Shown piece after piece: positions 3,720 through 51,966 of a stretch of 57,694 nucleotides of DNA; within the stretch, counting starts at the first letter, position 1; each line of letters begins with the position of its first letter. Source of the DNA: an uncultured archaeon (GTDB taxonomy: Archaea; Aenigmatarchaeota; Aenigmatarchaeia; GW2011-AR5); the NCBI GenBank assembly GCA_964456345.1, contig CAYVZO010000001.1, positions 1-57,694 of the forward strand, given 5' to 3'. The notes beneath the pieces were generated by a model that saw only the letters and a program-made list of their open reading frames with translations, had not been told where the DNA came from and did not search any database. The translations under genes and the position numbers were made by a program.

Positions 3720-5089
3720 AAGTGCTTATAATAGGTCTTGATGGAGCTGACCCGGATTTTATAGAAAAGAATAAAAGCCGTCTGAGGAACATCTCCGGCA
3801 TTATTGACAAAGGCATTTCAGGCAAGCTTAGAAGCGTCATACCACCGCTGACGGGTCCTGCATGGACATCTTTCATGACAGGCGTTAACCCCGGAAAGCA
3901 CGGTGTCCATCATTTTATATCAACTGACATAAATTCAGGAGAGGAAAAAATACTGAACTCTGAGATGATAAAAGACAGCAAGAAACTGTGGGATATTCTA
4001 GGTGAAAACCAAAAAAAAGTTACGGTAATAAATGTCCCTGTCACCTACCCTCCTTATCCTGTGAACGGTTATATGGTAACAGGCATGCTCACACCTGACG
4101 AATCGTGTGAGTTCACCTATCCAAAAACACTCAAGAGTGAACTGAAGGATTACAGGATATTTGTTGACTGGATGGATTATTCAAACCTTGAGAAATTTCT
4201 TTCCGACCTCTATGATGTGACGGACAAAAGGGTATCGAACGCGCTTATGCTTATGAACAGGCCCTGGGACTTCTTTATGCTGGTCTTCTCAGGTACGGAT
4301 GTAATACAGCACTTCCTTTTCAAGGAGGAGGACCATGAAAATAAGGGGATTTACGACGAGGCGATATTGAAATACTTCATGTTTATTGACGAAAAAATCG
4401 GTGAGTTAAAGAAAAAGGCAGGAGCTGACGTTGTTTTACTTATGTCAGACCACGGCTTTGGAAAGATACCGAAAAAGGCAGTCAATCTCAACGTATGGCT
4501 TGAGAAGAAGGGTCTGCTGGTATCAAAGAAAAAGACGCTTGACATGAAAGGCGTGTTTTTCGAAATTGCTATGAAGTTCAGAAAACTCAGGAGCATTGCA
4601 CCGAAATCTGTGAAAAGGGTTGCAAAACCGCCTGTTATGGACATCGACTGGCCTAAAACAAAGGCTCATTTTTCCAAGGCCTGGATAAACGTAGGGTACA
4701 TAAAACTCAGCCAGAAAGATGAAGAGCTTAGGAACAGAATAATATCCGAACTAGAAACCATAGAGGACAGCGGTAAACGTGTAATCGACAGCATATACAA
4801 GAAGGGGGACATATATTCAGGCAGACACTTGGACGAGATTCCTGACATCGTCTTTCTTTTTTCTGATGATTATACAGGGTCCCTGAAACCTGTATTCATA
4901 GAGGAAATACCGAAAGACAGGAGACCTGCTGGCCACAGGATTAATGGTTTCTTTGCGATCAGCGGCGAAAAAATAAAGAGAGCCAAAACAGATGCAAGCA
5001 TAATGGATATTGCACCCACTGTACTTGACCTCTTTGGCATAGAAAAGCCCGGGTACATGGACGGTAAAGCACTTGACGTGAGGGGCTAG
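3716..5089 (+). CDS. Alkaline-phosphatase superfamily protein (type I phosphodiesterase/nucleotide pyrophosphatase-like)
   Basis: MKVLIIGLDGADPDF, PPLTGPAWTSFMTG and LMSDHGFG metal-ligand regions. The ATG at 3716 overlaps the TGA of the GT2 gene and is preferred over the GTG at 3707. Confidence 0.7.
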   Translation: MKVLIIGLDGADPDFIEKNKSRLRNISGIIDKGISGKLRSVIPPLTGPAWTSFMTGVNPGKHGVHHFISTDINSGEEKILNSEMIKDSKKLWDILGENQKKVTVINVPVTYPPYPVNGYMVTGMLTPDESCEFTYPKTLKSELKDYRIFVDWMDYSNLEKFLSDLYDVTDKRVSNALMLMNRPWDFFMLVFSGTDVIQHFLFKEEDHENKGIYDEAILKYFMFIDEKIGELKKKAGADVVLLMSDHGFGKIPKKAVNLNVWLEKKGLLVSKKKTLDMKGVFFEIAMKFRKLRSIAPKSVKRVAKPPVMDIDWPKTKAHFSKAWINVGYIKLSQKDEELRNRIISELETIEDSGKRVIDSIYKKGDIYSGRHLDEIPDIVFLFSDDYTGSLKPVFIEEIPKDRRPAGHRINGFFAISGEKIKRAKTDASIMDIAPTVLDLFGIEKPGYMDGKALDVRG

Positions 5090-6105
5090 GAAAAAAGTTT
5101 CTTGTTCTCTGATATCCATTCAAAGGTCTTCTTTATGCCGTCTCTGACACTGGTTTTGGGTTCCCAGGAGAAGTCCTTCTTTGCCTTTTTTATGTCGCAA
5201 TAAAATACCTTCTGGTCAGCAGGCCGCCAGTCAGAAAATTTGTATGTTATTCTTCTGCCTGTCAGCTCCTCCAGTAATGCTATCAATTCCAAGATGGATA
5301 TTGTATTCTCTCTGCCACCGCCTATGTTATAAACTTCGCCTGAAAATTCCTTTATCTTTTTGGTTTGCTTCTCGAAAAGCTCTGCCAAATCATGTATAAA
5401 AAGTATGTCACGTACCTGCTTTCCATCTCCGTAAATCGTAAGCAGCTTGTTGTTTATTGCAGATAGTATGAAGTGGACAACCCAACCCTGGTCAGTCGAG
5501 CCGAATTGTCTCGGGCCGTAAATACAAGACTGTCTGTTAGTTATAGTATTGATACCGTATATGGAAGCATAATCCCTTGTATACTGGTCAGCTGCAAGTT
5601 TTGAAGACCCGTAAGGCGTATGTTCCTTGGCATCAATGGGAAAGCTTTCGTTGACGCCTTCTTCGCCCTCGAAATCGTACCTTTTTTCCTTTTCTTTTAT
5701 AGGTATTTTGTTTACATTGTCTCCGTATACCTTGTTTGTTGAGCAGTAGATTACTGGCAGGTCGTTTTTCCTTGCGGCTTCCAGTACGTTGAACGTGCCC
5801 AAAGCATTTATTTCAAAGTCTTTCCTGGGGTCCTTCACAGATATCGTGACAGCTGTCTGGGCTGCGGTGTGGTATATTATATCACATCCATGGCATGCTT
5901 CTGACAGGAATTTCTCGTCCCTTATGTCGCCGCTGATAATTGTTACGCCTTTCTTGGACTTTAGCCATTCCATGTTCTTTTCAGTGCCTTTCCGGTAAAT
6001 GCTGTCAAAGACCACCACCTCATTCCCGTTGCCTGAGAAATAGTCAGCAAAGTTCGTTCCGATGAAACCGCATCCTCCTGTGATAAAGATTCTGATTCTA
6101 ACCAC
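5086..6105 (-). CDS. NAD-dependent epimerase/dehydratase (sugar-nucleotide epimerase-like)
   Basis: ITGGCGFIGTNF Rossmann motif and YGSSKLAAD (YxxxK). GTG start one nt after the stop of the upstream gene. Confidence 0.85.
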   Translation of the reverse strand: MVRIRIFITGGCGFIGTNFADYFSGNGNEVVVFDSIYRKGTEKNMEWLKSKKGVTIISGDIRDEKFLSEACHGCDIIYHTAAQTAVTISVKDPRKDFEINALGTFNVLEAARKNDLPVIYCSTNKVYGDNVNKIPIKEKEKRYDFEGEEGVNESFPIDAKEHTPYGSSKLAADQYTRDYASIYGINTITNRQSCIYGPRQFGSTDQGWVVHFILSAINNKLLTIYGDGKQVRDILFIHDLAELFEKQTKKIKEFSGEVYNIGGGRENTISILELIALLEELTGRRITYKFSDWRPADQKVFYCDIKKAKKDFSWEPKTSVRDGIKKTFEWISENKKLFS

Positions 6106-7419: not shown

Positions 7420-8859
7420 CTAATCCTCCAGTTTCTCGTGCTCAATGAAGTATTTCGAAATTTTTGAAATTATTATCGCGGACCCCAGTATGATAGGCGA
7501 GGCCAGCATTATCGAGAACCTCAGCGCAAATATAGTGGCAATGAAAGGTCCGAGGAACCATATTGAAAGAAAGATGAAAGCATTGAGATGCGCCTTGCTT
7601 CTAACGGACTCGAAAAATATTGCCATGATAACCAGGAGGTAGGTGAACACAGCGCCCATAACATATATGTTGTTCACTCCAATTGATACCACAAAAATCA
7701 GAAGAGGTATCAAAAACCACAGCATCTTCATGGTGAGATTATCTGTAAGCTTTTTCTTGTTTATGGAAGCATATGAAAGATAGAAAATTGCGTACATCAT
7801 GAGAAGCATGGGTGAAATGAAGAACGCCACCAACGAAGCGATGAAGCTGGTAACCACGCTAGGCATGTTCTCAGGTGAGACGCTTTCCCAGTCAACATTA
7901 AATGTGAACGAAAACAGGCTTGTTTCCTGGACAACCCGAATCAGGTTTCCTGGCTCTTGCAACTCCTGCACTGACACATAGACGTTCGGGAAACTTGCGC
8001 CTTCTTCTGACTTTATGCCGTGGAACGTCAAAGGACCAAGATATGTCGAGCCGACATATTTAAGACCAAATATCGGAATGGTCAGTGTAAAAAAGATGAG
8101 CATGATTAAAGCGTAATTTATCACGATGTACTTAGTTTTCCTCCACAGGGCCTTTATGTTCCTGGTCAGAATAAATTCATATGCTATAACAGCTATGAAG
8201 AACCCTGTTATAAGCCATACAACCCACCAGTGACCTGTCCATGTAAACCCCCATGCTGCAAGGGCTACGCCTGTAAGCAACGAGAACGGCAGCATCTTCT
8301 TCAGGTTGTTTTTTGAGCTGAACTTGTGGGAGAACAGGAAAAGTGTTATTACAACAAGCGGTATCAGCAGAATTATGGCATCGCTGTCAGGATCTCCGCC
8401 AAGCGTCCGGCGCATTATTGAAGATTCAAATACTACAAAAAGCGCTGCTATGACCCCTGCTCTCCTGTCATAGAGTATTTTTCCAATAAAGTATATAGGT
8501 ACTGCAGCGAAGGAAGCAAGCAGAGGCGGGAACCAGACAAGAAATTCCCATAAAGGCATGTTGTTCATGAACATCCGGAAAAACATATAGGAATATGCGC
8601 CTGCGTATACGTAGAAATTGTGACCTATAAGCTCTCTGTTGACTCCATAGGGCGCCTCAACAAGCGGGTCGTGCTCAGGTATAGTTCCGTTGTTATTGAC
8701 TATATCATCCATCTGCCTGAAGAACGTATATGAATCTATGTTCCTTAGGTAGGGCCAGTTGTAATCAAGAAGCCTGACGTGTACCCCAAAATATATTATT
8801 ATCAGAATTGAAAAAATTACCCAATATTTTTTCAGTAAGTTAAAAATCGGTTTTTTCAT
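7420..8859 (-). CDS. aglB: Oligosaccharyltransferase AglB/STT3, N-terminal transmembrane half
   Basis: 479 aa polytopic protein. Acidic loop motifs NIDSYTFFRQ and GGDPDSDAI, an SVSE/TIXE-like SVQE in a long loop, and LRFSIMLASP late in the sequence. Recognition is at pattern level only. Confidence 0.65.
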   Translation of the reverse strand: MKKPIFNLLKKYWVIFSILIIIYFGVHVRLLDYNWPYLRNIDSYTFFRQMDDIVNNNGTIPEHDPLVEAPYGVNRELIGHNFYVYAGAYSYMFFRMFMNNMPLWEFLVWFPPLLASFAAVPIYFIGKILYDRRAGVIAALFVVFESSIMRRTLGGDPDSDAIILLIPLVVITLFLFSHKFSSKNNLKKMLPFSLLTGVALAAWGFTWTGHWWVVWLITGFFIAVIAYEFILTRNIKALWRKTKYIVINYALIMLIFFTLTIPIFGLKYVGSTYLGPLTFHGIKSEEGASFPNVYVSVQELQEPGNLIRVVQETSLFSFTFNVDWESVSPENMPSVVTSFIASLVAFFISPMLLMMYAIFYLSYASINKKKLTDNLTMKMLWFLIPLLIFVVSIGVNNIYVMGAVFTYLLVIMAIFFESVRSKAHLNAFIFLSIWFLGPFIATIFALRFSIMLASPIILGSAIIISKISKYFIEHEKLED

Positions 8860-8877: not shown

Positions 8878-10044
8878 TTATTTCTTCTTAAACTCTTCTG
8901 TATCAAGCTTTTCCTGTCCGATTATGATCTGGGATTCATCGCTCAGGAAGAAGGAGTTTTTTAAACCCCACCTTTTTGTAAGTTTCCCTATTAATTTTCT
9001 TCCCATACCTATAGGTCGTCCAAACCCTTTCCTGTTGACCTGCCTTATAAGTGTGCAGTTCTTGCCTATTATAGACTCCATTACACGGCCGTAATATTCT
9101 ATAAGGCTGTTTTCCTGCACCATTGAGCCCGAAAGGAACGTGTTCTTTATCTCGCATCCATCTGCTATAGAAGAGTCCTTGATTTCACACTTCGGTCCTA
9201 TCTTGCAGTTCTTGCCGATGGATACACTGCCTGCAAATTTAACAGGCCCTACTATCGTTGCGTTTTCGCCTATTTCCGCGTTCTCTATGCCGGTTATCTT
9301 TTTACCTATTAATACGCCGGAGTTCCTGGGCTTTATTTTCTTAAGGAAGTGGGTATTCGCTTCTAGAAGGTGCTCGGGTCTTCCGACGTCGAACCTACTC
9401 CCTGTAAGCTCTTTACAGCGGACCTTCCGCCCTGCGTCAAGCATGAGCTGTATTGCATCCGTTATTTCATATTCGCCTTTTTTGTTTGGTTCAGCCTTCT
9501 TTATAAAATCGAATATTTCCGGATGGAATATGTAGAAACCTGTTATGACAAATTCGCTCGGTGGATTCTCCGGCTTTTCTATTACCCTGCGCACGTTCCA
9601 GTCGTCGTGAACAACGACGCCGAATTTGCTCGGGTCCTTTTCTTTCTTGACCGAAAGCTCTGCTGAAGGGCCATTTTTATGGAAGTCCTTTACTGTGTTC
9701 TCTAGGTCTCCGTCGAATATCGTATCGCCGAATAAGACTATGAAAGGGCCCTTTATCAGGCTCTTTGCCTGCATTATTGCATGGGCGATACCTAATTGTT
9801 TTCCCTGCTCCACGTAATGCAGTTTCATGCCATAGTCCTTTGATTCCAGGTAATTTATCAGCTCTTCCTTCTTGTATCCTACTATTAAAACTGTTTCTTC
9901 GACTCCGAGCCTTTTTAGCGTATCTAATGTGTAGTCTATTGCAGGCCTGTTGGCCAGCGGTATCATCGCTTTCGGGCAAGTGAACGTATGCGGACGCAGC
10001 CGCATGCCTATGCCTGCTGCTGGTATTACTGCCTGTCTTATCAT
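8878..10044 (-). CDS. Sugar-1-phosphate nucleotidyltransferase with C-terminal left-handed beta-helix domain (GlmU/ST0452-like)
   Basis: AVIPAAGIGMRLRPHTFTCPKAMIPL nucleotide-binding loop, followed by hexapeptide-repeat-like C-terminal region. Confidence 0.8.
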   Translation of the reverse strand: MIRQAVIPAAGIGMRLRPHTFTCPKAMIPLANRPAIDYTLDTLKRLGVEETVLIVGYKKEELINYLESKDYGMKLHYVEQGKQLGIAHAIMQAKSLIKGPFIVLFGDTIFDGDLENTVKDFHKNGPSAELSVKKEKDPSKFGVVVHDDWNVRRVIEKPENPPSEFVITGFYIFHPEIFDFIKKAEPNKKGEYEITDAIQLMLDAGRKVRCKELTGSRFDVGRPEHLLEANTHFLKKIKPRNSGVLIGKKITGIENAEIGENATIVGPVKFAGSVSIGKNCKIGPKCEIKDSSIADGCEIKNTFLSGSMVQENSLIEYYGRVMESIIGKNCTLIRQVNRKGFGRPIGMGRKLIGKLTKRWGLKNSFFLSDESQIIIGQEKLDTEEFKKK

Positions 10045-11328
10045 TTACCACGCAACCCCTTCAAAGCCCCTGACCTTGTTCCTGCCAAGTACCCTTCTTC
10101 CTTCTAGTATTATCCTGTTTCGCATTTTATCAAAATCCCTGTCTTCCAGCTGCCTGAACTCGTCCCAGTCCGTGAGTATCAGGCATGCATCAGCATTGTC
10201 AAGGCATTCTCCAATGTCTGCGTACGTTATTCCTGGAAACCTTTTCCTCATATTTTCAACCGCGTTTGGGTCGTACGCGCTGATGAACGCGCCTTTGTCT
10301 GTCAGCTCTTTTATTATAACTGCTGCTGGAGAATCCCTTACGTCGTCTGTTCCTGCCTTGAAAGACAGACCCAGTACAGCTATTTTCTTTCCTTTTACAT
10401 TAGTTTTTTTCTCGAGCAGCTCTATGATTTTCAAGGGCTGGCCTTTGTTTGTGTCAAGCATAGCCTTGATTAGCTTTGGTTCGCAACCAAGCTGGTCAGC
10501 TTTCTTTAGCAGCGCTGAAATGTCTTTTCTGAAGCAGGAACCGCCGAAGCCGATTCCTGCTTCCAAAAATAACTTGCCTATCCTCCTGTCGTAGCCGACC
10601 GCCTCTGCGACGTCGTAAACGTCTATTCCAAGCTTTTTGCATATGTTCCCTATTTCATTTATCAGTGATATCTTTGCCGCCAGGAACGTATTGGAAGCGT
10701 ATTTTATCATCTCTGCTGTCTTTATGTTTTTTCTCAAAATGGGCGTTTTTAATTTTTCATGGATTTTTTCAGCGATATCGCCGGATTTCTTGTCAAGCTC
10801 ACCTATGACTATCCTGTCAGGATTCAAGAAATCGTGCAAGGCTTTCCCCTCCCGCAGAAACTCAGGCACCATGCAAACCCCGAATTCGCCTGCTTTTTTG
10901 CCTGAGTGCCGCTCTAACTCAGGTATGACGATGTCATCTGTTGTGCCTGGCACGACAGTTGATTTTACAGCAATGACGTGATAACCATCTTTGTTCCTCA
11001 GCGCTTTGCCGAGTTCTCTGGAAACCTTCTTTACGTAGGTAAGGTCTATGCTTCCATCGTCTTTGGACGGCGTGCCAACTGCTATGAAACTTATTTCTGA
11101 ATTTTTTACTGCATAATCAGTGTCTGTAGTAGCTGTTATCTGCTTTGCCTCTACAGCTGCTTTGAGTCTCGCTTCGAGCCCGTCTTCGTAGATGGTCGGA
11201 ACTCCGTGATTTATTTTGTCTACCTTTTCTTTTTCTACGTCTACGCAGATTACCTTATGGCCCAGAGAGGCAAAGCCTACTGCAGTGCATAAACCGACGT
11301 ATCCTGAACCTATAATCGAGATGTCCAT
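10045..11328 (-). CDS. UDP-glucose/GDP-mannose 6-dehydrogenase family protein
   Basis: ISIIGSGYVGLCTAVGFA NAD-binding N-terminus and GFGGSCFRKD catalytic-Cys motif. 427 aa. Confidence 0.9.
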   Translation of the reverse strand: MDISIIGSGYVGLCTAVGFASLGHKVICVDVEKEKVDKINHGVPTIYEDGLEARLKAAVEAKQITATTDTDYAVKNSEISFIAVGTPSKDDGSIDLTYVKKVSRELGKALRNKDGYHVIAVKSTVVPGTTDDIVIPELERHSGKKAGEFGVCMVPEFLREGKALHDFLNPDRIVIGELDKKSGDIAEKIHEKLKTPILRKNIKTAEMIKYASNTFLAAKISLINEIGNICKKLGIDVYDVAEAVGYDRRIGKLFLEAGIGFGGSCFRKDISALLKKADQLGCEPKLIKAMLDTNKGQPLKIIELLEKKTNVKGKKIAVLGLSFKAGTDDVRDSPAAVIIKELTDKGAFISAYDPNAVENMRKRFPGITYADIGECLDNADACLILTDWDEFRQLEDRDFDKMRNRIILEGRRVLGRNKVRGFEGVAW

Positions 11329-24040: not shown

Positions 24041-25255
24041 TCACTCAAAACGCTCGTCAAGGAAGGTCTTGACCTTTTCGAGAACAGAATCGTTTATGGC
24101 GAGCGATATTTCCCGTGTCCTGCCATAACGGCCCTTTGATATCACCTTTGCGTTTATTATACCCAGCATATCAAGCTCGCTTATAAGGTCGCTTACCCTC
24201 CTCTGTGTCAGGCATTTCAGAGCGTTGTCCTGGCATATCCTTTTGTAGGTATTGAAAACATCTCCTGTAAGGAGCCTCCTGTCAACCCATGTGCCTCCGT
24301 TGTTTTCGTGACCATTGCCAAGCCGTATTATGGCGTTCAGGACTGCTTGTGAATGTTTTGGCTGCGTCTTTATGGTTTCAGATACCCTATCCAGGTCGAT
24401 TTTCTCTTCAGCTGCATCAACGTGCCTTTCTTCTATATCCTGGTCGCCAAGGCGTTCGCTTATTTCTCCCGCCACCCTCAACAGGTCCAGGGCGCGCCTT
24501 GCATCACCATGCTCTTGCGCAGCAAGCGCTGCACACTTGTTTATCACATGGTCTTTTATCTCACAATTGAACCCCTGCTTTATCCTCTGAGACAAGATGT
24601 CCCTTAGCTGAACAGCGTCATAAGGCCTGAAAATCGCCTCTTCCTCACTAAGCGAGGACTTTATCCTCTGGTCCAGCGTATCGCGGAACGACAAATCATT
24701 TGTAATGCCTATGATTGTCACTGTGGAGTTCTTTAGGTCGGTATTAATCCGCGTGAGATTGTAAAGGAACTCATCTCCTATTTTCCTGAAAAGGTTGTCT
24801 ATCTCGTCCAGAACGATGATAAGTGCCTGTTTCTTCTCGTCTATAGTATCAAAGAATTTTCTGTAAAGAACATCGGTTGGCAGTCCTGTATCAGGCACGG
24901 TCTCGCCAAGCTCTTTCAGCATCTGTGCCAGCAAACGGTATTCTGTATCCGCCACCTTCTTCATCTTGCAGTTTATGTATATTGATGTTATGTTTCTGTT
25001 CTTTGTTATCTGTTTTAGCTGACTCAACACGAACTTCACTACAACTGTCTTGCCTGTCCCGCATGTACCATATATGAAAAGGTTGTTAACACTATATCCA
25101 CGAAGCGCAGGCGCGAGGACAGCGCTTATCTGTTTTATCTCCTCTTCCCTGTGCAGTATCTTTTCAGGAGTGAAATTAGCAGTAAGTGCGTTTTTGTTCT
25201 TAAAAATAGTGGGTTTTTCTAAATAAGTAGAAAATATATTATCCACAAACCACAC
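24041..25255 (-). CDS. cdc6: Orc1/Cdc6 replication initiator
   Basis: Walker A GTCGTGKT, Walker B IIVLDEID, GDARRALDLLR and a C-terminal winged helix. GTG start. Confidence 0.95.
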   Translation of the reverse strand: MWFVDNIFSTYLEKPTIFKNKNALTANFTPEKILHREEEIKQISAVLAPALRGYSVNNLFIYGTCGTGKTVVVKFVLSQLKQITKNRNITSIYINCKMKKVADTEYRLLAQMLKELGETVPDTGLPTDVLYRKFFDTIDEKKQALIIVLDEIDNLFRKIGDEFLYNLTRINTDLKNSTVTIIGITNDLSFRDTLDQRIKSSLSEEEAIFRPYDAVQLRDILSQRIKQGFNCEIKDHVINKCAALAAQEHGDARRALDLLRVAGEISERLGDQDIEERHVDAAEEKIDLDRVSETIKTQPKHSQAVLNAIIRLGNGHENNGGTWVDRRLLTGDVFNTYKRICQDNALKCLTQRRVSDLISELDMLGIINAKVISKGRYGRTREISLAINDSVLEKVKTFLDERFE

Positions 25256-25465
25256 CCCAAACTAACCTTAATTTCTTTTAGAAAGTATATAAATATATCT
25301 CTATCGGAAACTAAGGTTATTAACCTATATTTTTTGAAAACAAAAACCCCCCTATATTTCTTATAGAGACCTTGTGTTGTTGTTTTTCTTTCTATAACGA
25401 TGTTATAAGAAGCTATGGTTGTTGATTTTGACAAAGTTTTAAATTCTCCATAAGAAAACAGCCCC
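25256..25465. promoter_or_regulatory. orc1/cdc6 upstream region (promoter; classical position for an oriC, but short)
   Basis: 210 bp, AT-rich. It contains TAACCTTA / TAAGGTTA inverted copies and the 13-bp palindrome AGGTTATTAACCT. No ORB-like long repeats seen. Confidence 0.3.
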
Positions 25466-45070: not shown

Positions 45071-46576
45071 ATGGTATATACTGCACAGGATCTTAGAGAT
45101 TTTTCCAATAGAGAACTCGGAGATGTGAACTATTTAGTAGCGTCAAAGAGGCAGCCAAGGAGGCATTATAGATCAGAGAGTGGCGAAATAAAAATACAAG
45201 AGACGTCAGGAGGACTTACAAGAGCTCTCGAGCCTCCTGTCAGATATTCCAATGGTGTTTGGGTAGCTTCTGCAGACACAGAGGCCGATTTCGAGGTAGT
45301 GCAAGCTGACAACAGCGTAATGGTCCCTTCAAGAGACCCGAAATACAAGCTTCTGAGATTATGGCTAAGAGGAAGGGGCGATTTCCCAAACAGGTATCTA
45401 TGGTTCAATTTCCATAACGTCCCAGGGATAACCCCCAGGTTTAATGCTAGAATGTTTACTGATTATCTATTTGACAACCGTCAGTACAGTATCAGCATAG
45501 ATCACGAAGCTCTCAGAGCAGAGAAAGCTGGCAAGAGAACCTTGGCAGATATCCAAGACTATCACCTTCTGCTTGTTGGTCAGGATCTCGAGTGGCTGAA
45601 TCCTGACGTATTCAAGATGCTTTTTATTCATACCCCGTGGCCTACGGCTGATGAATACTGTGAAATGCCCGAGCCTGCAAGATATAAGATAGCCAAAGAT
45701 ATGCTCGCTTTCGATATTCTTGGGTTTCAGACGGAAAAAGATTCGGAGAATTTTATGAATACCATAGAAAAAACCGTCAAATGTGCAAGAACCAAGGACG
45801 ATGGCCGTATCACTGTTAACGGACATTTAGCATTGGTTCGCAGCTATCCTATAGGTATAGATTATGATGAAATAAAGGCCCGGGTTGCAGACAGAGAGAG
45901 AATGGAAAAAGAAACAAGAAGAATCAAGAAAAGACTTGGCATAAAGGAAAACCAGAAAGTCTTTATAAGGTGGGACAGGGCAGACCCCTCAAAAAACATA
46001 CCCAACTCAATCAGGGCTTATGAAAGCTTCCTCGATAGCAACCCCCAGCATATTGGAAATGTTTGCTATTTGGTCATAGCTGAGGAAAGCAGGCAGCACC
46101 TTAAAGTTTATCGCGATTACAACAGAGAGATACGTGACACAGTTGAGAAGGTGAACCAGAAATACGGCTCTGAACTTTACAAACCTGTTATCTTAACAGG
46201 TGGCATACCGCATGATAAATTGCATCCTTACTGGTATATGTTTGACATTCATATAGCCAATTCCTGGAGAGACGGACAACATCTTGGAGTCAAAGAAGGT
46301 GTAGCAGCAAACAAAGGAAATGGCGTTTCGATAATAGGAAACGAAGTAGGTGCTGCTAAGCAAGGCTATTGTAATGGAAAAGGAGCCCTTATTACTGACC
46401 CTAGAAGTGGAGATGCAATTCAGGAGCTGGCAGATTTAATGAAAAAAGCAATAGAAATGCCAGAAGCGGAAAAAGAAGCCAGAATGGCTAATATGAAGAA
46501 GGTTTTCGAGGCAGATAATATTTTCAAATGGGAAGCAGAAAGGCTTGAAGATGCGTTAAACCTTATGAAAAGATAA
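45071..46576 (+). CDS. GT20-family glycosyltransferase (trehalose-6-phosphate synthase-like)
   Basis: SGGLTRAL, LWFNFHNVPG, IQDYHLLLV, HTPWP, DILGFQTEKDSENF, SYPIGIDYDE, RWDRADPSKN and RDGQHLGVKEGVA follow the OtsA motif order. Confidence 0.7.
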   Translation: MVYTAQDLRDFSNRELGDVNYLVASKRQPRRHYRSESGEIKIQETSGGLTRALEPPVRYSNGVWVASADTEADFEVVQADNSVMVPSRDPKYKLLRLWLRGRGDFPNRYLWFNFHNVPGITPRFNARMFTDYLFDNRQYSISIDHEALRAEKAGKRTLADIQDYHLLLVGQDLEWLNPDVFKMLFIHTPWPTADEYCEMPEPARYKIAKDMLAFDILGFQTEKDSENFMNTIEKTVKCARTKDDGRITVNGHLALVRSYPIGIDYDEIKARVADRERMEKETRRIKKRLGIKENQKVFIRWDRADPSKNIPNSIRAYESFLDSNPQHIGNVCYLVIAEESRQHLKVYRDYNREIRDTVEKVNQKYGSELYKPVILTGGIPHDKLHPYWYMFDIHIANSWRDGQHLGVKEGVAANKGNGVSIIGNEVGAAKQGYCNGKGALITDPRSGDAIQELADLMKKAIEMPEAEKEARMANMKKVFEADNIFKWEAERLEDALNLMKR

Positions 46577-46694: not shown

Positions 46695-46997
46695 ATGGGA
46701 AGAAAAAGAGGCTTTGATGAAAAGAAGATAGTATCTATTATTGGTTTATTGGCGAGTAATCCTGACGGATTGTGGCTAAGGCGGATAGCAGTAGAGCTGA
46801 ATTTATCGCCTACTACAGTTTCTAAATATATAGACGGAATCTTAAAGCCACTAGTAGAAGACGTTTCTCTGGGCGGCTCTGGCAAGCCGCTTCTCCGCGT
46901 CATACGGCTAAGGCCTTTTGTTCTTGAGAGGCTTGCTGAAGGCAAGAAAATAAAGCAGATAATGAAGATGCTTGATATTATGAACAAAATAGGCTGA
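46695..46997 (+). CDS. Small winged-helix DNA-binding protein
   Basis: IVSIIGLLASNPDGLWLRRIAVELNLSPTTVSKYIDGIL is an HTH/wHTH pattern. The ATG at 46695 is preferred. Located immediately left of the iteron region. Confidence 0.5.
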   Translation: MGRKRGFDEKKIVSIIGLLASNPDGLWLRRIAVELNLSPTTVSKYIDGILKPLVEDVSLGGSGKPLLRVIRLRPFVLERLAEGKKIKQIMKMLDIMNKIG

Positions 46998-47127
46998 TTT
47001 CCCGGATTATTATACAAATACTTTTGTTATATAGATTTTTTTGTGCCTTATAAAGGGCAAATATGGATTTTAAGGAGCTAAAAGTTATATTTTATTCTTA
47101 AATTTTTAAGATTTAGGCTCTCTAAAC

Positions 47128-47589
47128 CTCACAGAATACTCATATTTGCTCACAAACAGTATAGGTATATATGAAGGTTGCGTGAATATCTCGTGAACAT
47201 ATCGTGATATTCACGTGAACATAGTGGTTTTACGTGAATATTTCGTGAATACCTGTGAATATATGTGAACTTGAAATGAATATATCGTGAACATCAGTTT
47301 TAAGCCTCACAAAAACAATAAAAATAGCACTGAAAACTCACATATTGGCCTTTATTCCATGTTTTAGCCGTAATAACCTTCACAAAACCTTCACTTTACC
47401 CTTCACAAAACCTTCACAAAACCTTCACCATGTTCACAGTGAAAGAAATATCTAAATTTGGCATTCACGTGAAGTTCATAAACATTCATGTGAATATATC
47501 GTGAATATCACGTGAAGTTGTTAAATAAGCGTGAACATCATCGTGAACATGCTAAAATAGCTCGTGAAGGTACGTGAAATTGGAGTGAA
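47128..47589. repeat. Iteron array: about 26 copies of a GTGAA/TTCAC core (consensus about CGTGAAYAT) with 10-12 bp phasing, in three blocks
   Basis: Counted by eye: 18 GTGAA and 8 TTCAC on the + strand, plus near-copies. Blocks at 47182-47291 (direct), 47377-47437 (inverted orientation) and 47464-47589 (direct). Confidence 0.9.
47377..47429. repeat. Tandem 11-bp repeat CCTTCAC(A/T)AAA, about 5 units, followed by the dyad TTCACAGTGAA
   Basis: ccttcacaaaaccttcactttacccttcacaaaaccttcacaaaaccttcacc read directly. The dyad lies at 47433..47443. Confidence 0.9.
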
Positions 47590-47624
47590 TATCTAGGCAT
47601 AGTTTTTTAAACCGAGGCATATAT

Positions 47625-48899
47625 ATGAATAAAATGGAAGAGGAGAGAAAAGAAAAGCAAGATAGCCAAGACCAGCAAACAACTGCGGCAAACGAGCCTG
47701 CAGAGGCAAAACAAGAAGAGAAGAAACTAGGGGATTTAGGCACCCCCAAAGAGCAAAAAGATAGCCAAGAAGCAATGCCCGAAAAGAGCATCCTAGAGAC
47801 GCCTCAAACACTAACAAAAGAAATCTCTGAGAAAATGCCCGAGAAGTCGAACAGGACCAAGGAATGGATGAATGAGATTGGATGGTCAAGAAGCCCTTTC
47901 ACCTTTTCCATAGTACCTGAGTTATTTGTCGGCTATATTGAACAGGTAAACAGCATTGTCACCCTGCTTGAGGAAAAACATAAAGTAATACTTTTGGTCG
48001 GGCCAACCGGGTCCGGGAAAACGACGCTCTTGAAATGGGTTTCAGGCAACCTTCCTGAAGAATTCGACTATATTTTTATAGGAAAACCCCCTGAAAGAGC
48101 AGAAGAATTCGTTGATATATTCAATGAAAAGTTCAGAGTTCCCTGGTACAAGAGGCTGTTTACCTCTAACATAAAAAACATACACCAGATACCTGAAAAA
48201 CTTAACAAGAAACTTAAAAAGCACCTGGTTATAATGTTTGACGAAGCACACGAATCCTCGATAGATGTTCTTGAATGGCTAAGGGTATTCAGCGACCAGG
48301 TAAATAATATGTCTGTCCTCATAGCAGGACTGCCAAGTTTTGATGAAAAATTGTCTGAGCTTGAGACACTCAGAAAAAGGATTGTGACAAAAACAGAGCT
48401 TATATCCCTGACAAAAGAAGAAACTACAGAACTCATAAGGAAAAGAATAGCAAGCGTAGGCGGGAAAGATCTGAGGCCGTTTAATGCTGATATCATATCG
48501 GAGATATACGAAAAAACAGGAGGCTTTCCTCGCGAGGTCATTCGTATATGCAATGACCTTGTGAATAAGGCAGTCAAAGCGTATAAATTCGACGTAACCC
48601 GTGACATGCTTATAGGTGAGAAGGCTGAGGAAAAGAAAGTTTCCTTGGACATTCTGGACAGGATGACGCCGCTTCAGAAAGAAATAATGCAGCTGCTTTC
48701 GAAGGGCGCTTACACACCAGGGGAGGTTGCGAACTCGCTCGATCTGAGCAAATACAAAAGCAGGCAGCATGCGGTGCGTTCGATAAACAATATTATGAAG
48801 AGGCTCATGGCCGAAGGCTTTTTGGAGAGAAGTAAGCGTGACAAGGCTTATATCTACTCACTGGTGCCGCAGCTGAAGACAATCCTGATAAAATCATAG
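47625..48899 (+). CDS. AAA+ ATPase with C-terminal winged helix (Orc1/Cdc6-like architecture; ExeA/TniB-like ATPase core)
   Basis: Walker A GPTGSGKT, Walker B VIMFDEAH, GGFPREVIRICN, and C-terminal LQKEIMQLLSKGAYTPGEVANSL...RLMAEGFLER. The first ~85 aa are a low-complexity K/E/Q-rich region. Confidence 0.75.
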   Translation: MNKMEEERKEKQDSQDQQTTAANEPAEAKQEEKKLGDLGTPKEQKDSQEAMPEKSILETPQTLTKEISEKMPEKSNRTKEWMNEIGWSRSPFTFSIVPELFVGYIEQVNSIVTLLEEKHKVILLVGPTGSGKTTLLKWVSGNLPEEFDYIFIGKPPERAEEFVDIFNEKFRVPWYKRLFTSNIKNIHQIPEKLNKKLKKHLVIMFDEAHESSIDVLEWLRVFSDQVNNMSVLIAGLPSFDEKLSELETLRKRIVTKTELISLTKEETTELIRKRIASVGGKDLRPFNADIISEIYEKTGGFPREVIRICNDLVNKAVKAYKFDVTRDMLIGEKAEEKKVSLDILDRMTPLQKEIMQLLSKGAYTPGEVANSLDLSKYKSRQHAVRSINNIMKRLMAEGFLERSKRDKAYIYSLVPQLKTILIKS

Positions 48900-51392: not shown

Positions 51393-51602
51393 CTATTCGT
51401 CTAGAATCTTTCTTGCAAGCTTTATGTCGCGTTTCATGATGGTCCTGCGGTTTCCATGTTTTGACAGTTTTTCAGCTTCTAAGGCGATGAGCTTGGTTTT
51501 TTCTTCCATTATTTTCCCAAGTTCAGATGCGGCCTTGTCAGAAACACGCTTAGCGCCCACGCTTTTGAACAATCGCCTTATCGGCTGCAGGGTCAAAACC
51601 AT
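51393..51602 (-). CDS. Archaeal histone (HMf family)
   Basis: 69 aa. LQPIRRLFKSVGAKRVSDKAASELGKIMEEKTKLIALEAEKLSKHGNRRTIMKRDIKLA aligns by eye with HMfB. It is the internal Met of the longer listed ORF. Confidence 0.9.
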   Translation of the reverse strand: MVLTLQPIRRLFKSVGAKRVSDKAASELGKIMEEKTKLIALEAEKLSKHGNRRTIMKRDIKLARKILDE

Positions 51603-51675
51603 AATAATATTTTGTTCGAAAATATTTAAACCAGAATATATATAATATATCATATAGGGTGCTGAGGCAGGTGTC

Positions 51676-51966
51676 ATGACAGTAAAAACAGAGCTTGAAG
51701 AGCTTTTTCTGAGGAAGAAACCCGTGAAGCTACTCCTTAACATAAAGATGAAGAACAGTACGTACATATCTACACTGGCCAAGGACACGGACTGTACGTA
51801 TTCGCATACTGTAAAGCTTCTGGATTTCTTTAATAACCTGGGTCTCGTGGATTTCGAGAAGGCAGGACGAATAAAATACGTGAGACTGACGCAGGATGGC
51901 GAAAGCCTGGCAAACGATTTTGAATCCGTCCTGAGGAAGTTTAGCAAACTTAAACCAAGGAAGTGA
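51676..51966 (+). CDS. Winged-helix transcriptional regulator (ArsR/TrmB-like)
   Basis: [43 protein letters not shown] is an HTH-plus-wing pattern. Divergent from the histone gene. Confidence 0.6.

Follow-up and report, generated by a model that had tools for sequence, protein, structure and literature searches.

The locus and its layout

The stretch of DNA analysed here (the window, 57.7 kb or 57,694 nucleotides of contig CAYVZO010000001.1) comes from an uncultured archaeon of the Aenigmarchaeota, a DPANN lineage, and the element in question is a dense array of short GTGAA/TTCAC boxes lying between the gene for a small winged-helix protein and that for an AAA+ ATPase. The interval that holds it, 46998-47624, is 627 bp long; no other intergenic gap in a greedy map of open reading frames (ORFs) is larger, as had been claimed in a first-pass annotation made from the letters of the window. 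Its features and the two flanking genes are the following.

46695..46997, + strand: small winged-helix protein, 100 aa, always immediately upstream of the array in Aenigmarchaeota
46998..47127, no strand: AT-rich box-free stretch, 75% AT, a possible unwinding region or mere terminator and spacer
47128..47154, + strand: distal CTCACA(A/G)A pair (47128 and 47149), 21 bp apart
47171..47291, + strand: left block, 12 phased positions at a mean spacing of 10.55 bp
47306..47342, + strand: proximal CTCACA pair (47306 and 47337), with 31-bp spacing, which separates the left block from the middle one
47343..47378, no strand: box-free spacer, 37 bp, 65% AT, between the forward left half and the reverse middle block
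47379..47437, - strand: middle block, six reverse boxes of the type CCTTCACAAAA, at spacings of 11, 12, 11, 11 and 9 bp
47439..47589, + strand: right block, 10 forward boxes, abutting the ATPase promoter
47602..47611, + strand: TATA-like element TTTTTTAAAC, putatively the promoter of the ATPase gene
47625..48899, + strand: ATPase, AAA+ plus C-terminal winged helix, with an ORC1/Cdc6-like fold

Between 47128 and 47589 a motif count gives 18 copies of GTGAA on the + strand and 8 of TTCAC, all at exactly the coordinates listed in the first-pass annotation, and the near-copies named there are likewise present in the sequence. Its estimate that about one copy would be expected by chance is also sound: over all 462-bp stretches of the window the mean is 1.08 cores and the maximum outside the locus is 6, with 26 in the array. 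Nowhere else in the window do at least 4 cores fall within 100 bp. The longer form CGTGAAYAT, whose uniqueness had been proposed as a check, occurs nine times in the 57.7 kb, eight of them inside the gap.

The earlier claim of helical phasing is borne out by the distances between boxes of the same orientation, for which the best period in the window is 10.3 bp with a resultant R of 0.80; random placement gives 0.23+-0.06, and the observed value was reached by none of 500 random sets. Pooled over genomes, with one of two near-identical loci omitted, the box consensus is C-GTGAA-n-(A/T)-T, in which 56-67% of copies have the C at -1 and 73-79% the T at +8. The box is thus 9 bp long, with about 2 bp to its neighbor, and recurs every 10.5 bp, so that all boxes of a block come to lie on one face of the helix. 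The whole array amounts to some 30 short boxes in about 460 bp, one per helix turn, in three polarity blocks: about 12 forward, then 6 reverse, then about 10 forward plus dyads. In the output of Tandem Repeats Finder the locus appears as arrays of period 11, including one at 47181-47291 and another over the middle block (4.8 copies, 81% matches).

In the left block nine exact forward GTGAA copies are accompanied by ATGAA at 47171 and 47276, GTGAT at 47204, a degenerate GTGGT at 47226 and a single inverted TTCAC at 47210 that creates the dyad TTCACGTGAA. The right block has two dyads, TTCACGTGAA at 47464-47473 and TCACGTGAA at 47508-47516. The least stable portion of the gap is 47060-47120 (80-85% AT), and most relatives have a stretch of about 70-130 bp with 68-76% AT upstream of the array. 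As had been noted, the array ends 35 bp before the ATG at 47625, but the true ATPase start is probably the ATG at 47634, since M4 of the longer reading aligns with M1 of all 25 orthologues.

Conservation across Aenigmarchaeota

Relatives (denoted here by handles, L001 and so on) were collected by exact-protein look-up; a profile scan of genome contigs was swamped by the P-loop pattern, its matches being nine bacterial AAA+ genes and a single true relative (L001). Nine array-bearing genomes were compared, with ATPases 47-69% identical to the window protein. Common to all nine is the gene order LigT, small winged helix-turn-helix (wHTH) gene, a gap of 420-725 bp, ATPase gene and PRC-barrel gene, with the RadA, RPA and histone genes farther downstream. 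(In the window genome only, a trehalose-6-phosphate-synthase-like gene of family GT20, at 45071-46576, stands between LigT and the small wHTH gene; LigT directly adjoins the wHTH gene in the relatives, except in L020, where a PhoU/PHO4 pair is found there.)

For seven of these genomes, whose GC content ranges from 34 to 51%, core density is 26-43 per kb in the gap versus 1.5-3.1 per kb outside it, and the same array is present in the remaining two, L020 and L022. The period is 10.3-10.5 bp in all nine, with R of 0.69-0.83 versus a null of 0.21-0.25. Column invariance was assessed in a three-genome alignment (the window plus L011 and L013, the relatives nearest to it): 123 of 130 core columns (95%) are invariant versus 127 of 304 spacer columns (42%; Fisher p=3e-28), and so are 20 of 20 CTCAC columns. 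In the same alignment the TATA-like element is kept as ATTTCTTAAAC, and the positions of the left block are orthologous in both relatives.

At greater distance, where the proteins are only about 50% identical, the separation of box and start codon is still kept to 1-2 bp. The middle-block positions -255, -244, -232, -221, -210 and -201 are matched to within 1-2 bp in L016, L018 and L022, and L020 has the same pattern shifted by about 10 bp; right-block boxes at -49/-50, -60/-61, -70 and -91/-92 and the dyad at -170/-165 are present in most relatives. The CTCACA boxes are held in place in a similar manner, the 21-bp-spaced pair at the same relative place in L011, L013, L017, L018 and L020, and the 31-bp pair at -328/-297 in the window, -329/-298 in L020, -340/-308 in L018, -285/-254 in L017 and -276/-245 in L015. 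In six of the nine genomes the largest box-free stretch falls at the spacer between the opposed halves, where its length is 26-48 bp; 47343-47378 is a candidate site for melting or for another factor.

The array is therefore a precisely built DNA element under purifying selection. A repeat generated by slippage is excluded because the cores are fixed, the spacers diverge and both orientations occur. Almost certainly it is a large site of protein assembly, and in this respect the first-pass annotation, which had offered a nucleoprotein assembly site or a replication origin, stands on its first part: the element is conserved, footprinted and phased in nine of nine genomes and lies next to the gene for a protein whose fold is nearest to ORC1/Cdc6. 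Its second part, the origin, has been neither shown nor refuted.

Two further observations concern individual loci. L022 has a smaller cluster of about nine GTGAA/TTCAC boxes at 3990-4170, 1.9 kb upstream of its main array, in another intergenic gap that adjoins a LigT-like gene. In L016 (10001-10240), seven cores at 10180-10236 are inside the 5' end of an annotated 514-aa ORF (P0057), so that the array extends into annotated coding sequence; the N-terminal extension of P0057 is unique among the orthologues, and its annotated start is probably too far upstream.

The ATPase downstream of the array

The adjacent gene had been called AAA+/wHTH, correctly so: its product matches AAA_22 and ATPase_2, the only Pfam families to give a match, and carries a C-terminal winged helix. 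Its AlphaFold2 (AF2) model has a mean confidence (pLDDT) of 81, with residues 1-72 disordered. When this model is compared with the PDB by Foldseek, the first 16 matches are without exception ORC1, Cdc6 or archaeal Orc1/Orc2 (E 4e-13 to 8e-10), with 360-445 aligned columns that take in all three domains (AAA+ base, lid and C-terminal winged helix); RuvB, NLR, MuB and TnsC rank below them. Between the strands at 147-152 and 200-205 the model places helices 161-169 and 186-196 plus a short turn, a layout that would be compatible with the initiator-specific motif, in which an additional helix between strand 2 and strand 3 makes contact with DNA. An hhalign alignment with canonical Orc1/Cdc6 puts Walker A, Walker B and GGFPRE in register, the last aligning with the Cdc6 sensor-2 motif HGDARR. 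Invariant in 26 sequences are Walker A (GPTGSGKT), Walker B (DEAHE), GGFPRE, several arginines and the winged-helix stretch Y-KSRQHAVRS-xNN. The ATPase is here called an Orc-fold protein and not a member of the Cdc6 family.

Other searches were less specific. Against the PDB by sequence only P-loop-level matches were found; a fold search of BFVD returned clamp-loader and other AAA+ proteins and nothing specific; PHROGs gave weak MuB-like and clamp-loader matches only; and PADLOC gave weak P-loop-level matches only (the best 8.7e-6 at 23 bits) and no known defence system. Domain searches of the window proteins yielded no match to a DnaA domain, nor did Pfam and PHROGs to a Rep family, and the ATPase family was not found on viral contigs.

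Homologues of the ATPase are Aenigmarchaeota proteins, mostly without a name or labelled 'ExeA / T2SS ATPase' (T2SS being the type II secretion system). The family is not confined to Aenigmarchaeota, with 114 clusters at 50% identity that attain E<=1e-30. The names that the family bears in public databases include 'type II secretory pathway ATPase ExeA', 'general secretion pathway protein A' and 'Flp pilus assembly ATPase TadA'. Judged by fold and genomic context, such secretion and pilus names are very unlikely to be right, and the family annotated 'ExeA / type II secretion ATPase' is accordingly marked here as mis-named. A search of the literature on Aenigmarchaeota and DPANN found no description of the array or of the ATPase family.

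The small winged-helix protein and the genomic neighborhood

For the 100-aa protein encoded upstream of the array, Pfam gives weak helix-turn-helix matches. Its homologues are 46-86% identical, and the 49 found are all apparently from the Aenigmarchaeota lineage. The AF2 model (pLDDT 87) shows a MarR/ArsR/IclR-like winged helix plus two C-terminal helices, generic within the MarR/ArsR-like class (best E 2.5e-3), and fold comparison detected no specific similarity to centromere-binding proteins.

Downstream of the ATPase gene in the window are a PRC-barrel gene, radA, rpa and a histone gene, and the canonical orc1/cdc6 gene (24041-25255, minus strand) adjoins a PolD-small-subunit-like gene and PolB. 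The array locus is within a conserved replication-gene island that comprises orc1/cdc6, the PolD-small-subunit-like gene, PolB, RadA, RPA and histone. As to the histone gene, the mechanical ORF at 51393-51947 (minus strand) would encode 184 aa, of which the histone fold covers residues 120-178 only, and the orthologues have 69-86 aa; the real gene is probably one of about 70 codons with a long upstream region. The window was also scanned for Rfam families and for tRNAs, with no matches.

A candidate origin of the known archaeal type nearby

Elsewhere in the window is a site, overlooked in the first-pass annotation, that has the appearance of a conventional archaeal origin with origin recognition boxes (ORBs).

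25256..25465, no strand: ORB-type origin candidate upstream of the canonical orc1/cdc6 gene, a 210-bp gap and not part of the array

Its ORB-like boxes, with a G-string, read TCTCTATAAGAAATATAGGGGGG (minus strand), TCTCTATCGGAAACTAAGG and TCTCCATAAGAAAAC (both plus strand). Two boxes in inverted orientation stand on either side of an AT-rich core, and the interval includes some of the window's least stable 60-mers. Textbook ORBs are found at the same place in L019 (3700-3930) and L021 (3670-3950), e.g. TCTCCACAGGAAATGTTGGGGTG. The product of the orc1/cdc6 gene has both Cdc6 domains, Cdc6_lid and Cdc6_C being matched at 1.7e-20 and 4.6e-25. Because this ORB-type origin adjoins canonical orc1/cdc6, the GTGAA array is a second site, distinct from it, and if it were an origin would be a second one with a dedicated protein. 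The two sites, which face each other, are separated by 22 kb in the window, by about 29 kb in one relative and by about 57 kb in another; in L145 the ATPase gene is some 6 kb downstream of orc1, and over the genomes compared the array locus is 6-57 kb from orc1/cdc6. Between ORB site and array are 25 genes, 16 of them encoded by the minus strand; forks that start from the array would be weakly compatible with this distribution.

Which protein reads the boxes

Loci of distant relatives bear on this matter. L001, L023 and L145 all have an ATPase homologue, no large array and no small wHTH gene. L145 retains a single CGTGAA box immediately 3' of a TATA-like element (5960-5980). A CGTGAA between TATA element and start codon, at about -19, is also present in L011, L013, L015 and L022, and its recurrence suggests that the box there may be an ancestral autorepression site. 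L001 (CP070662.1) has no intergenic array, and the LigT coding sequence upstream of its ATPase homologue (9376-9933) contains 14 GTGAA/TTCAC cores, versus 7.0+-1.5 on synonymous shuffling (P=0.0005); eight other LigT orthologues have 0-2 cores each. Binding sites may be embedded in coding sequence in L001. A Nanopusillus homologue of the ATPase (35% identity) has a different recognition helix, and its locus lacks both the small wHTH gene and the array, with only 2 cores over 11 kb. In every genome that has the array, the recognition helix KSRQHAVRS is invariant.

A symmetric dimer of the MarR/ArsR type, which the small protein resembles, would suit direct repeats spaced by one turn less well than would a head-to-tail AAA+ oligomer. 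This geometry, the co-variation of recognition helix and array, and the persistence of boxes where the small gene is absent favor the ATPase as the reader of the boxes. The small protein may read the CTCACA boxes or aid assembly.

A proposed mechanism and its alternatives

The reading preferred here has the array serve as a platform to which the adjacent Orc-fold ATPase binds cooperatively and on one face; it would autoregulate the ATPase gene and probably act in the initiation of replication or its control. A probability of about 45% is given to this reading as a whole; possibly the locus represents a new kind of replication or replication-control locus. To an array that is phased, selected and fixed in architecture, and that occurs together with the ATPase gene, the proposal would add a binder, its oligomerisation, its control of its own gene and a part in replication. 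Assembly of the ATPase on one face of the DNA would be cooperative and ATP-dependent, giving a head-to-tail AAA+ oligomer with the winged helix of each protomer set on one box. With three opposed blocks at a fixed distance from the promoter, two or three opposed oligomers would form around the short box-free spacer, an assembly that the four CTCACA boxes and the small winged-helix protein probably nucleate or bound. Repression of the ATPase promoter by the assembly is envisaged because the complex would abut the TATA element and because in several relatives a box is just downstream of that element. A role in initiation is envisaged because the locus is in the replication-gene island; the site might be a second replicator served by a dedicated initiator, or it might control the nearby ORB origin.

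A number of results weigh against this. At the level of sequence, the Cdc6_C and Cdc6_lid (WHD_Cdc6) Pfam profiles find no match in the ATPase, and hhalign against canonical Orc1/Cdc6 gives a probability of 9% with the single sequence and 4% with a profile. A canonical ORB origin with its own Orc1/Cdc6 is only 22-57 kb away, and with one so near a second origin would be functionally odd. The check on strand skew proposed in the first-pass annotation gave no significant result: gene-wise skew at third codon positions (GC3-skew) has its best change-point at 46.6 kb, with the expected sign and a permutation P of 0.16. Skew lends no support to 25.3 kb either, the raw cumulative GC skew follows gene orientation, and in the loci of relatives, which are short at 13-21 kb, there is no skew signal. 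The gap has below-average duplex stability but is not among the window's least stable 60-mers, and the 87-bp interval between the opposed blocks is not plain AT-rich DNA, holding instead conserved CTCACA boxes plus the 37-bp spacer. The main binder could be the small wHTH protein, whose conservation equals that of the ATPase and whose gene accompanies the large array. ATPase homologues occur in L023 and L145 without a large array, so the core job of the ATPase would be independent of it.

The alternative that survives best is one in which the locus has no replication role and is either an oversized autoregulatory operator or a chromosome-organising, centromere-like site; this is judged unlikely, though deserving of serious attention. 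It would account well for the constant distances of the boxes from the start codon, which tie the array to the promoter, and for the box between TATA and start codon in five genomes, including L145 with no large array. The triad of small wHTH protein, clustered phased 11-bp repeats and NTPase matches the layout of type II/III partition systems, a canonical origin is already present nearby, and Orc1/Cdc6 proteins that are regulators rather than initiators exist, as with the DNA-damage regulator Orc1-2 in Sulfolobales (PMC6061795, PMC9738581). However, some 30 sites in three polarity blocks exceed the needs of repressing one promoter, and a regulator's sites might be sought elsewhere: in the 57.7 kb there are no further box clusters at other promoters, and outside the gap the hexamers CGTGAA and TTCACG are at about chance level, with 14 and 10 copies. 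As a centromere, the locus would be without a motor of the ParM, TubZ or ParA kind; its NTPase is an AAA+ protein with its own DNA-binding domain, and the small protein lacks specific resemblance to those that bind centromeres.

A bolder version of the preferred reading, in which the Orc-fold ATPase has converged on the DnaA solution, its head-to-tail polymer on about 30 phased 9-bp boxes firing or licensing a dedicated origin that coexists with or replaces the ORB/Orc1 origin, is doubtful, and is rated below the operator or centromere.

Rated lower again, and improbable, is the proposition that the boxes are bound mainly by the 100-aa winged-helix protein, with the ATPase a mere neighbor or remodeller. 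The distribution of the gene, in nine of nine array-bearing genomes and not at L001, L023 or L145, is what it would predict, the family is small and lineage-restricted, and the winged-helix model is confident. Against it, symmetric dimers of the MarR/ArsR type prefer inverted repeats with half-sites about one turn apart, and the repeats here are mostly direct; CGTGAA boxes persist without the small gene, by the ATPase gene in L145 and in LigT in L001; and it is the recognition helix of the ATPase that is invariant with the array and different where the array is absent.

It is very improbable that the array is the true origin used by canonical Orc1/Cdc6 (24041-25255), with GTGAA as degenerate mini-ORB half-sites. 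The TTCACGTGAA dyads do loosely recall the TTCC...GGAA dyad of mini-ORBs, which are short and occur clustered in Methanothermobacter and Pyrococcus origins (PMC1904270), and the skew change-point that scores best, albeit without significance, falls at 46.6 kb rather than 25.3 kb. That protein has, however, its own well-formed ORBs with G-strings immediately upstream of its gene in three genomes, and the array tracks the divergent ATPase gene while its distance to orc1 varies from 22 to 57 kb. Nor are mini-ORBs enriched: the pattern TTCCASTGGAA, with up to 2 mismatches, has 9 matches in the window versus 16.5 expected and none in the gap, in agreement with the earlier remark that the boxes are not of ORB or mini-ORB type.

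Chance low complexity, a slippage-derived tandem repeat or an RNA element with no function at the DNA level has a negligible probability, since, despite the period-11 arrays of Tandem Repeats Finder and a phage contig (L049) that shows that 11-bp CGTGAA-containing tandem repeats can arise, invariant cores with diverging spacers are the opposite of slippage, both orientations occur in an architecture fixed over nine genomes, Rfam has no match and a phase of about 10.4 bp points to recognition of double-stranded DNA.

A CRISPR-like repeat was also considered and rejected, as spacers diverge, cores are fixed and both orientations occur. A scan of viral contigs for two phased boxes gave mostly single chance matches, and the sole dense case was L049 (IMG/VR), in which 7460-7775 is a long 11-bp tandem repeat of AAAATTTCGTGAA / AAAATTTCGGAAA in an unrelated phage, found only via its CGTGAA.

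Comparison with known systems

In the plasmid partition loci R1 parC/ParR and pBtoxis tubC/TubR, 11-12 bp repeats are clustered around a promoter and the array doubles as operator. The present locus is similar in having repeat clusters by a promoter beside the genes for a small DNA-binding protein and an NTPase, but it has no actin-, tubulin- or ParA-type motor, its NTPase has its own winged helix, and the array is chromosomal and conserved over a whole lineage. Iteron plasmid origins, with iterons of 17-22 bp at about two turns, a Rep protein and a mobile context, differ in that here the period is 10.5 bp and chromosomal synteny is conserved. Orc1-2 of Sulfolobales is a parallel for an Orc-fold AAA+/winged-helix protein put to uses beyond origin firing (PMC6061795, PMC9738581), and the gene here is linked to radA and rpa; Orc1-2 is nevertheless a recognisable Cdc6 member that acts through a short motif at many promoters, in contrast to the one giant array here.

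With archaeal oriC/orc1 pairs the locus shares opposed repeated boxes directly upstream of a gene for an AAA+/winged-helix protein of ORC1/Cdc6 fold, in a replication-gene island. The differences are that those origins have a few ORBs of 13-36 bp, and here there are about 30 boxes of 9 bp with a 5-bp core, phased at 10.5 bp; that the array is without G-strings and without a clear, plain AT-rich unwinding element between inverted boxes; and that the ATPase fails Cdc6 sequence profiles. Origins with non-ORB boxes and an initiator other than canonical Cdc6 are not without precedent, Sulfolobus oriC3 with WhiP being one (PMC4010727). From such replicator-initiator pairs the locus differs in its vertical inheritance with conserved synteny, not being derived from a mobile element.

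In layout there is a likeness to DnaA and bacterial oriC. The low-affinity DnaA arrays of E. coli oriC, as described in PMC6070618 (and by Rozgaja et al. 2011 cited there), consist of 9-mers 2 bp apart in opposite orientations, and the same source has DnaA oligomerising head to tail. Shared with the present locus are the 9-bp box plus 2 bp, one per turn, the opposed arrays, an AAA+ protein with a C-terminal DNA-binding domain, and boxes ahead of the protein's own gene, which would allow autoregulation. The differences are that the ATPase has no Bac_DnaA domain and has a winged helix instead of the domain IV helix-turn-helix, that its fold is the one of archaeal or eukaryotic initiators, that the box is unlike DnaA boxes of the TTATCCACA type, and that the host is an archaeon with Orc1/Cdc6. 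The resemblance would be one of layout only and, if so, convergent.

Archaeal origins are generally thought to be recognized by monomeric Orc1/Cdc6 on a few long ORB boxes, and filament-type recognition of many phased short boxes is generally regarded as the mode of bacterial DnaA. Here an Orc-fold ATPase goes together with an array of DnaA style that is kept to the base pair over a whole DPANN lineage and is situated beside a normal ORB origin. Whichever function applies, be it second origin, control of initiation or chromosome organisation, the locus offers a defined 460-bp substrate and two small recombinant proteins, a system that would allow study of the assembly of an Orc-like AAA+ protein on DNA and one otherwise hard to obtain for uncultured DPANN.

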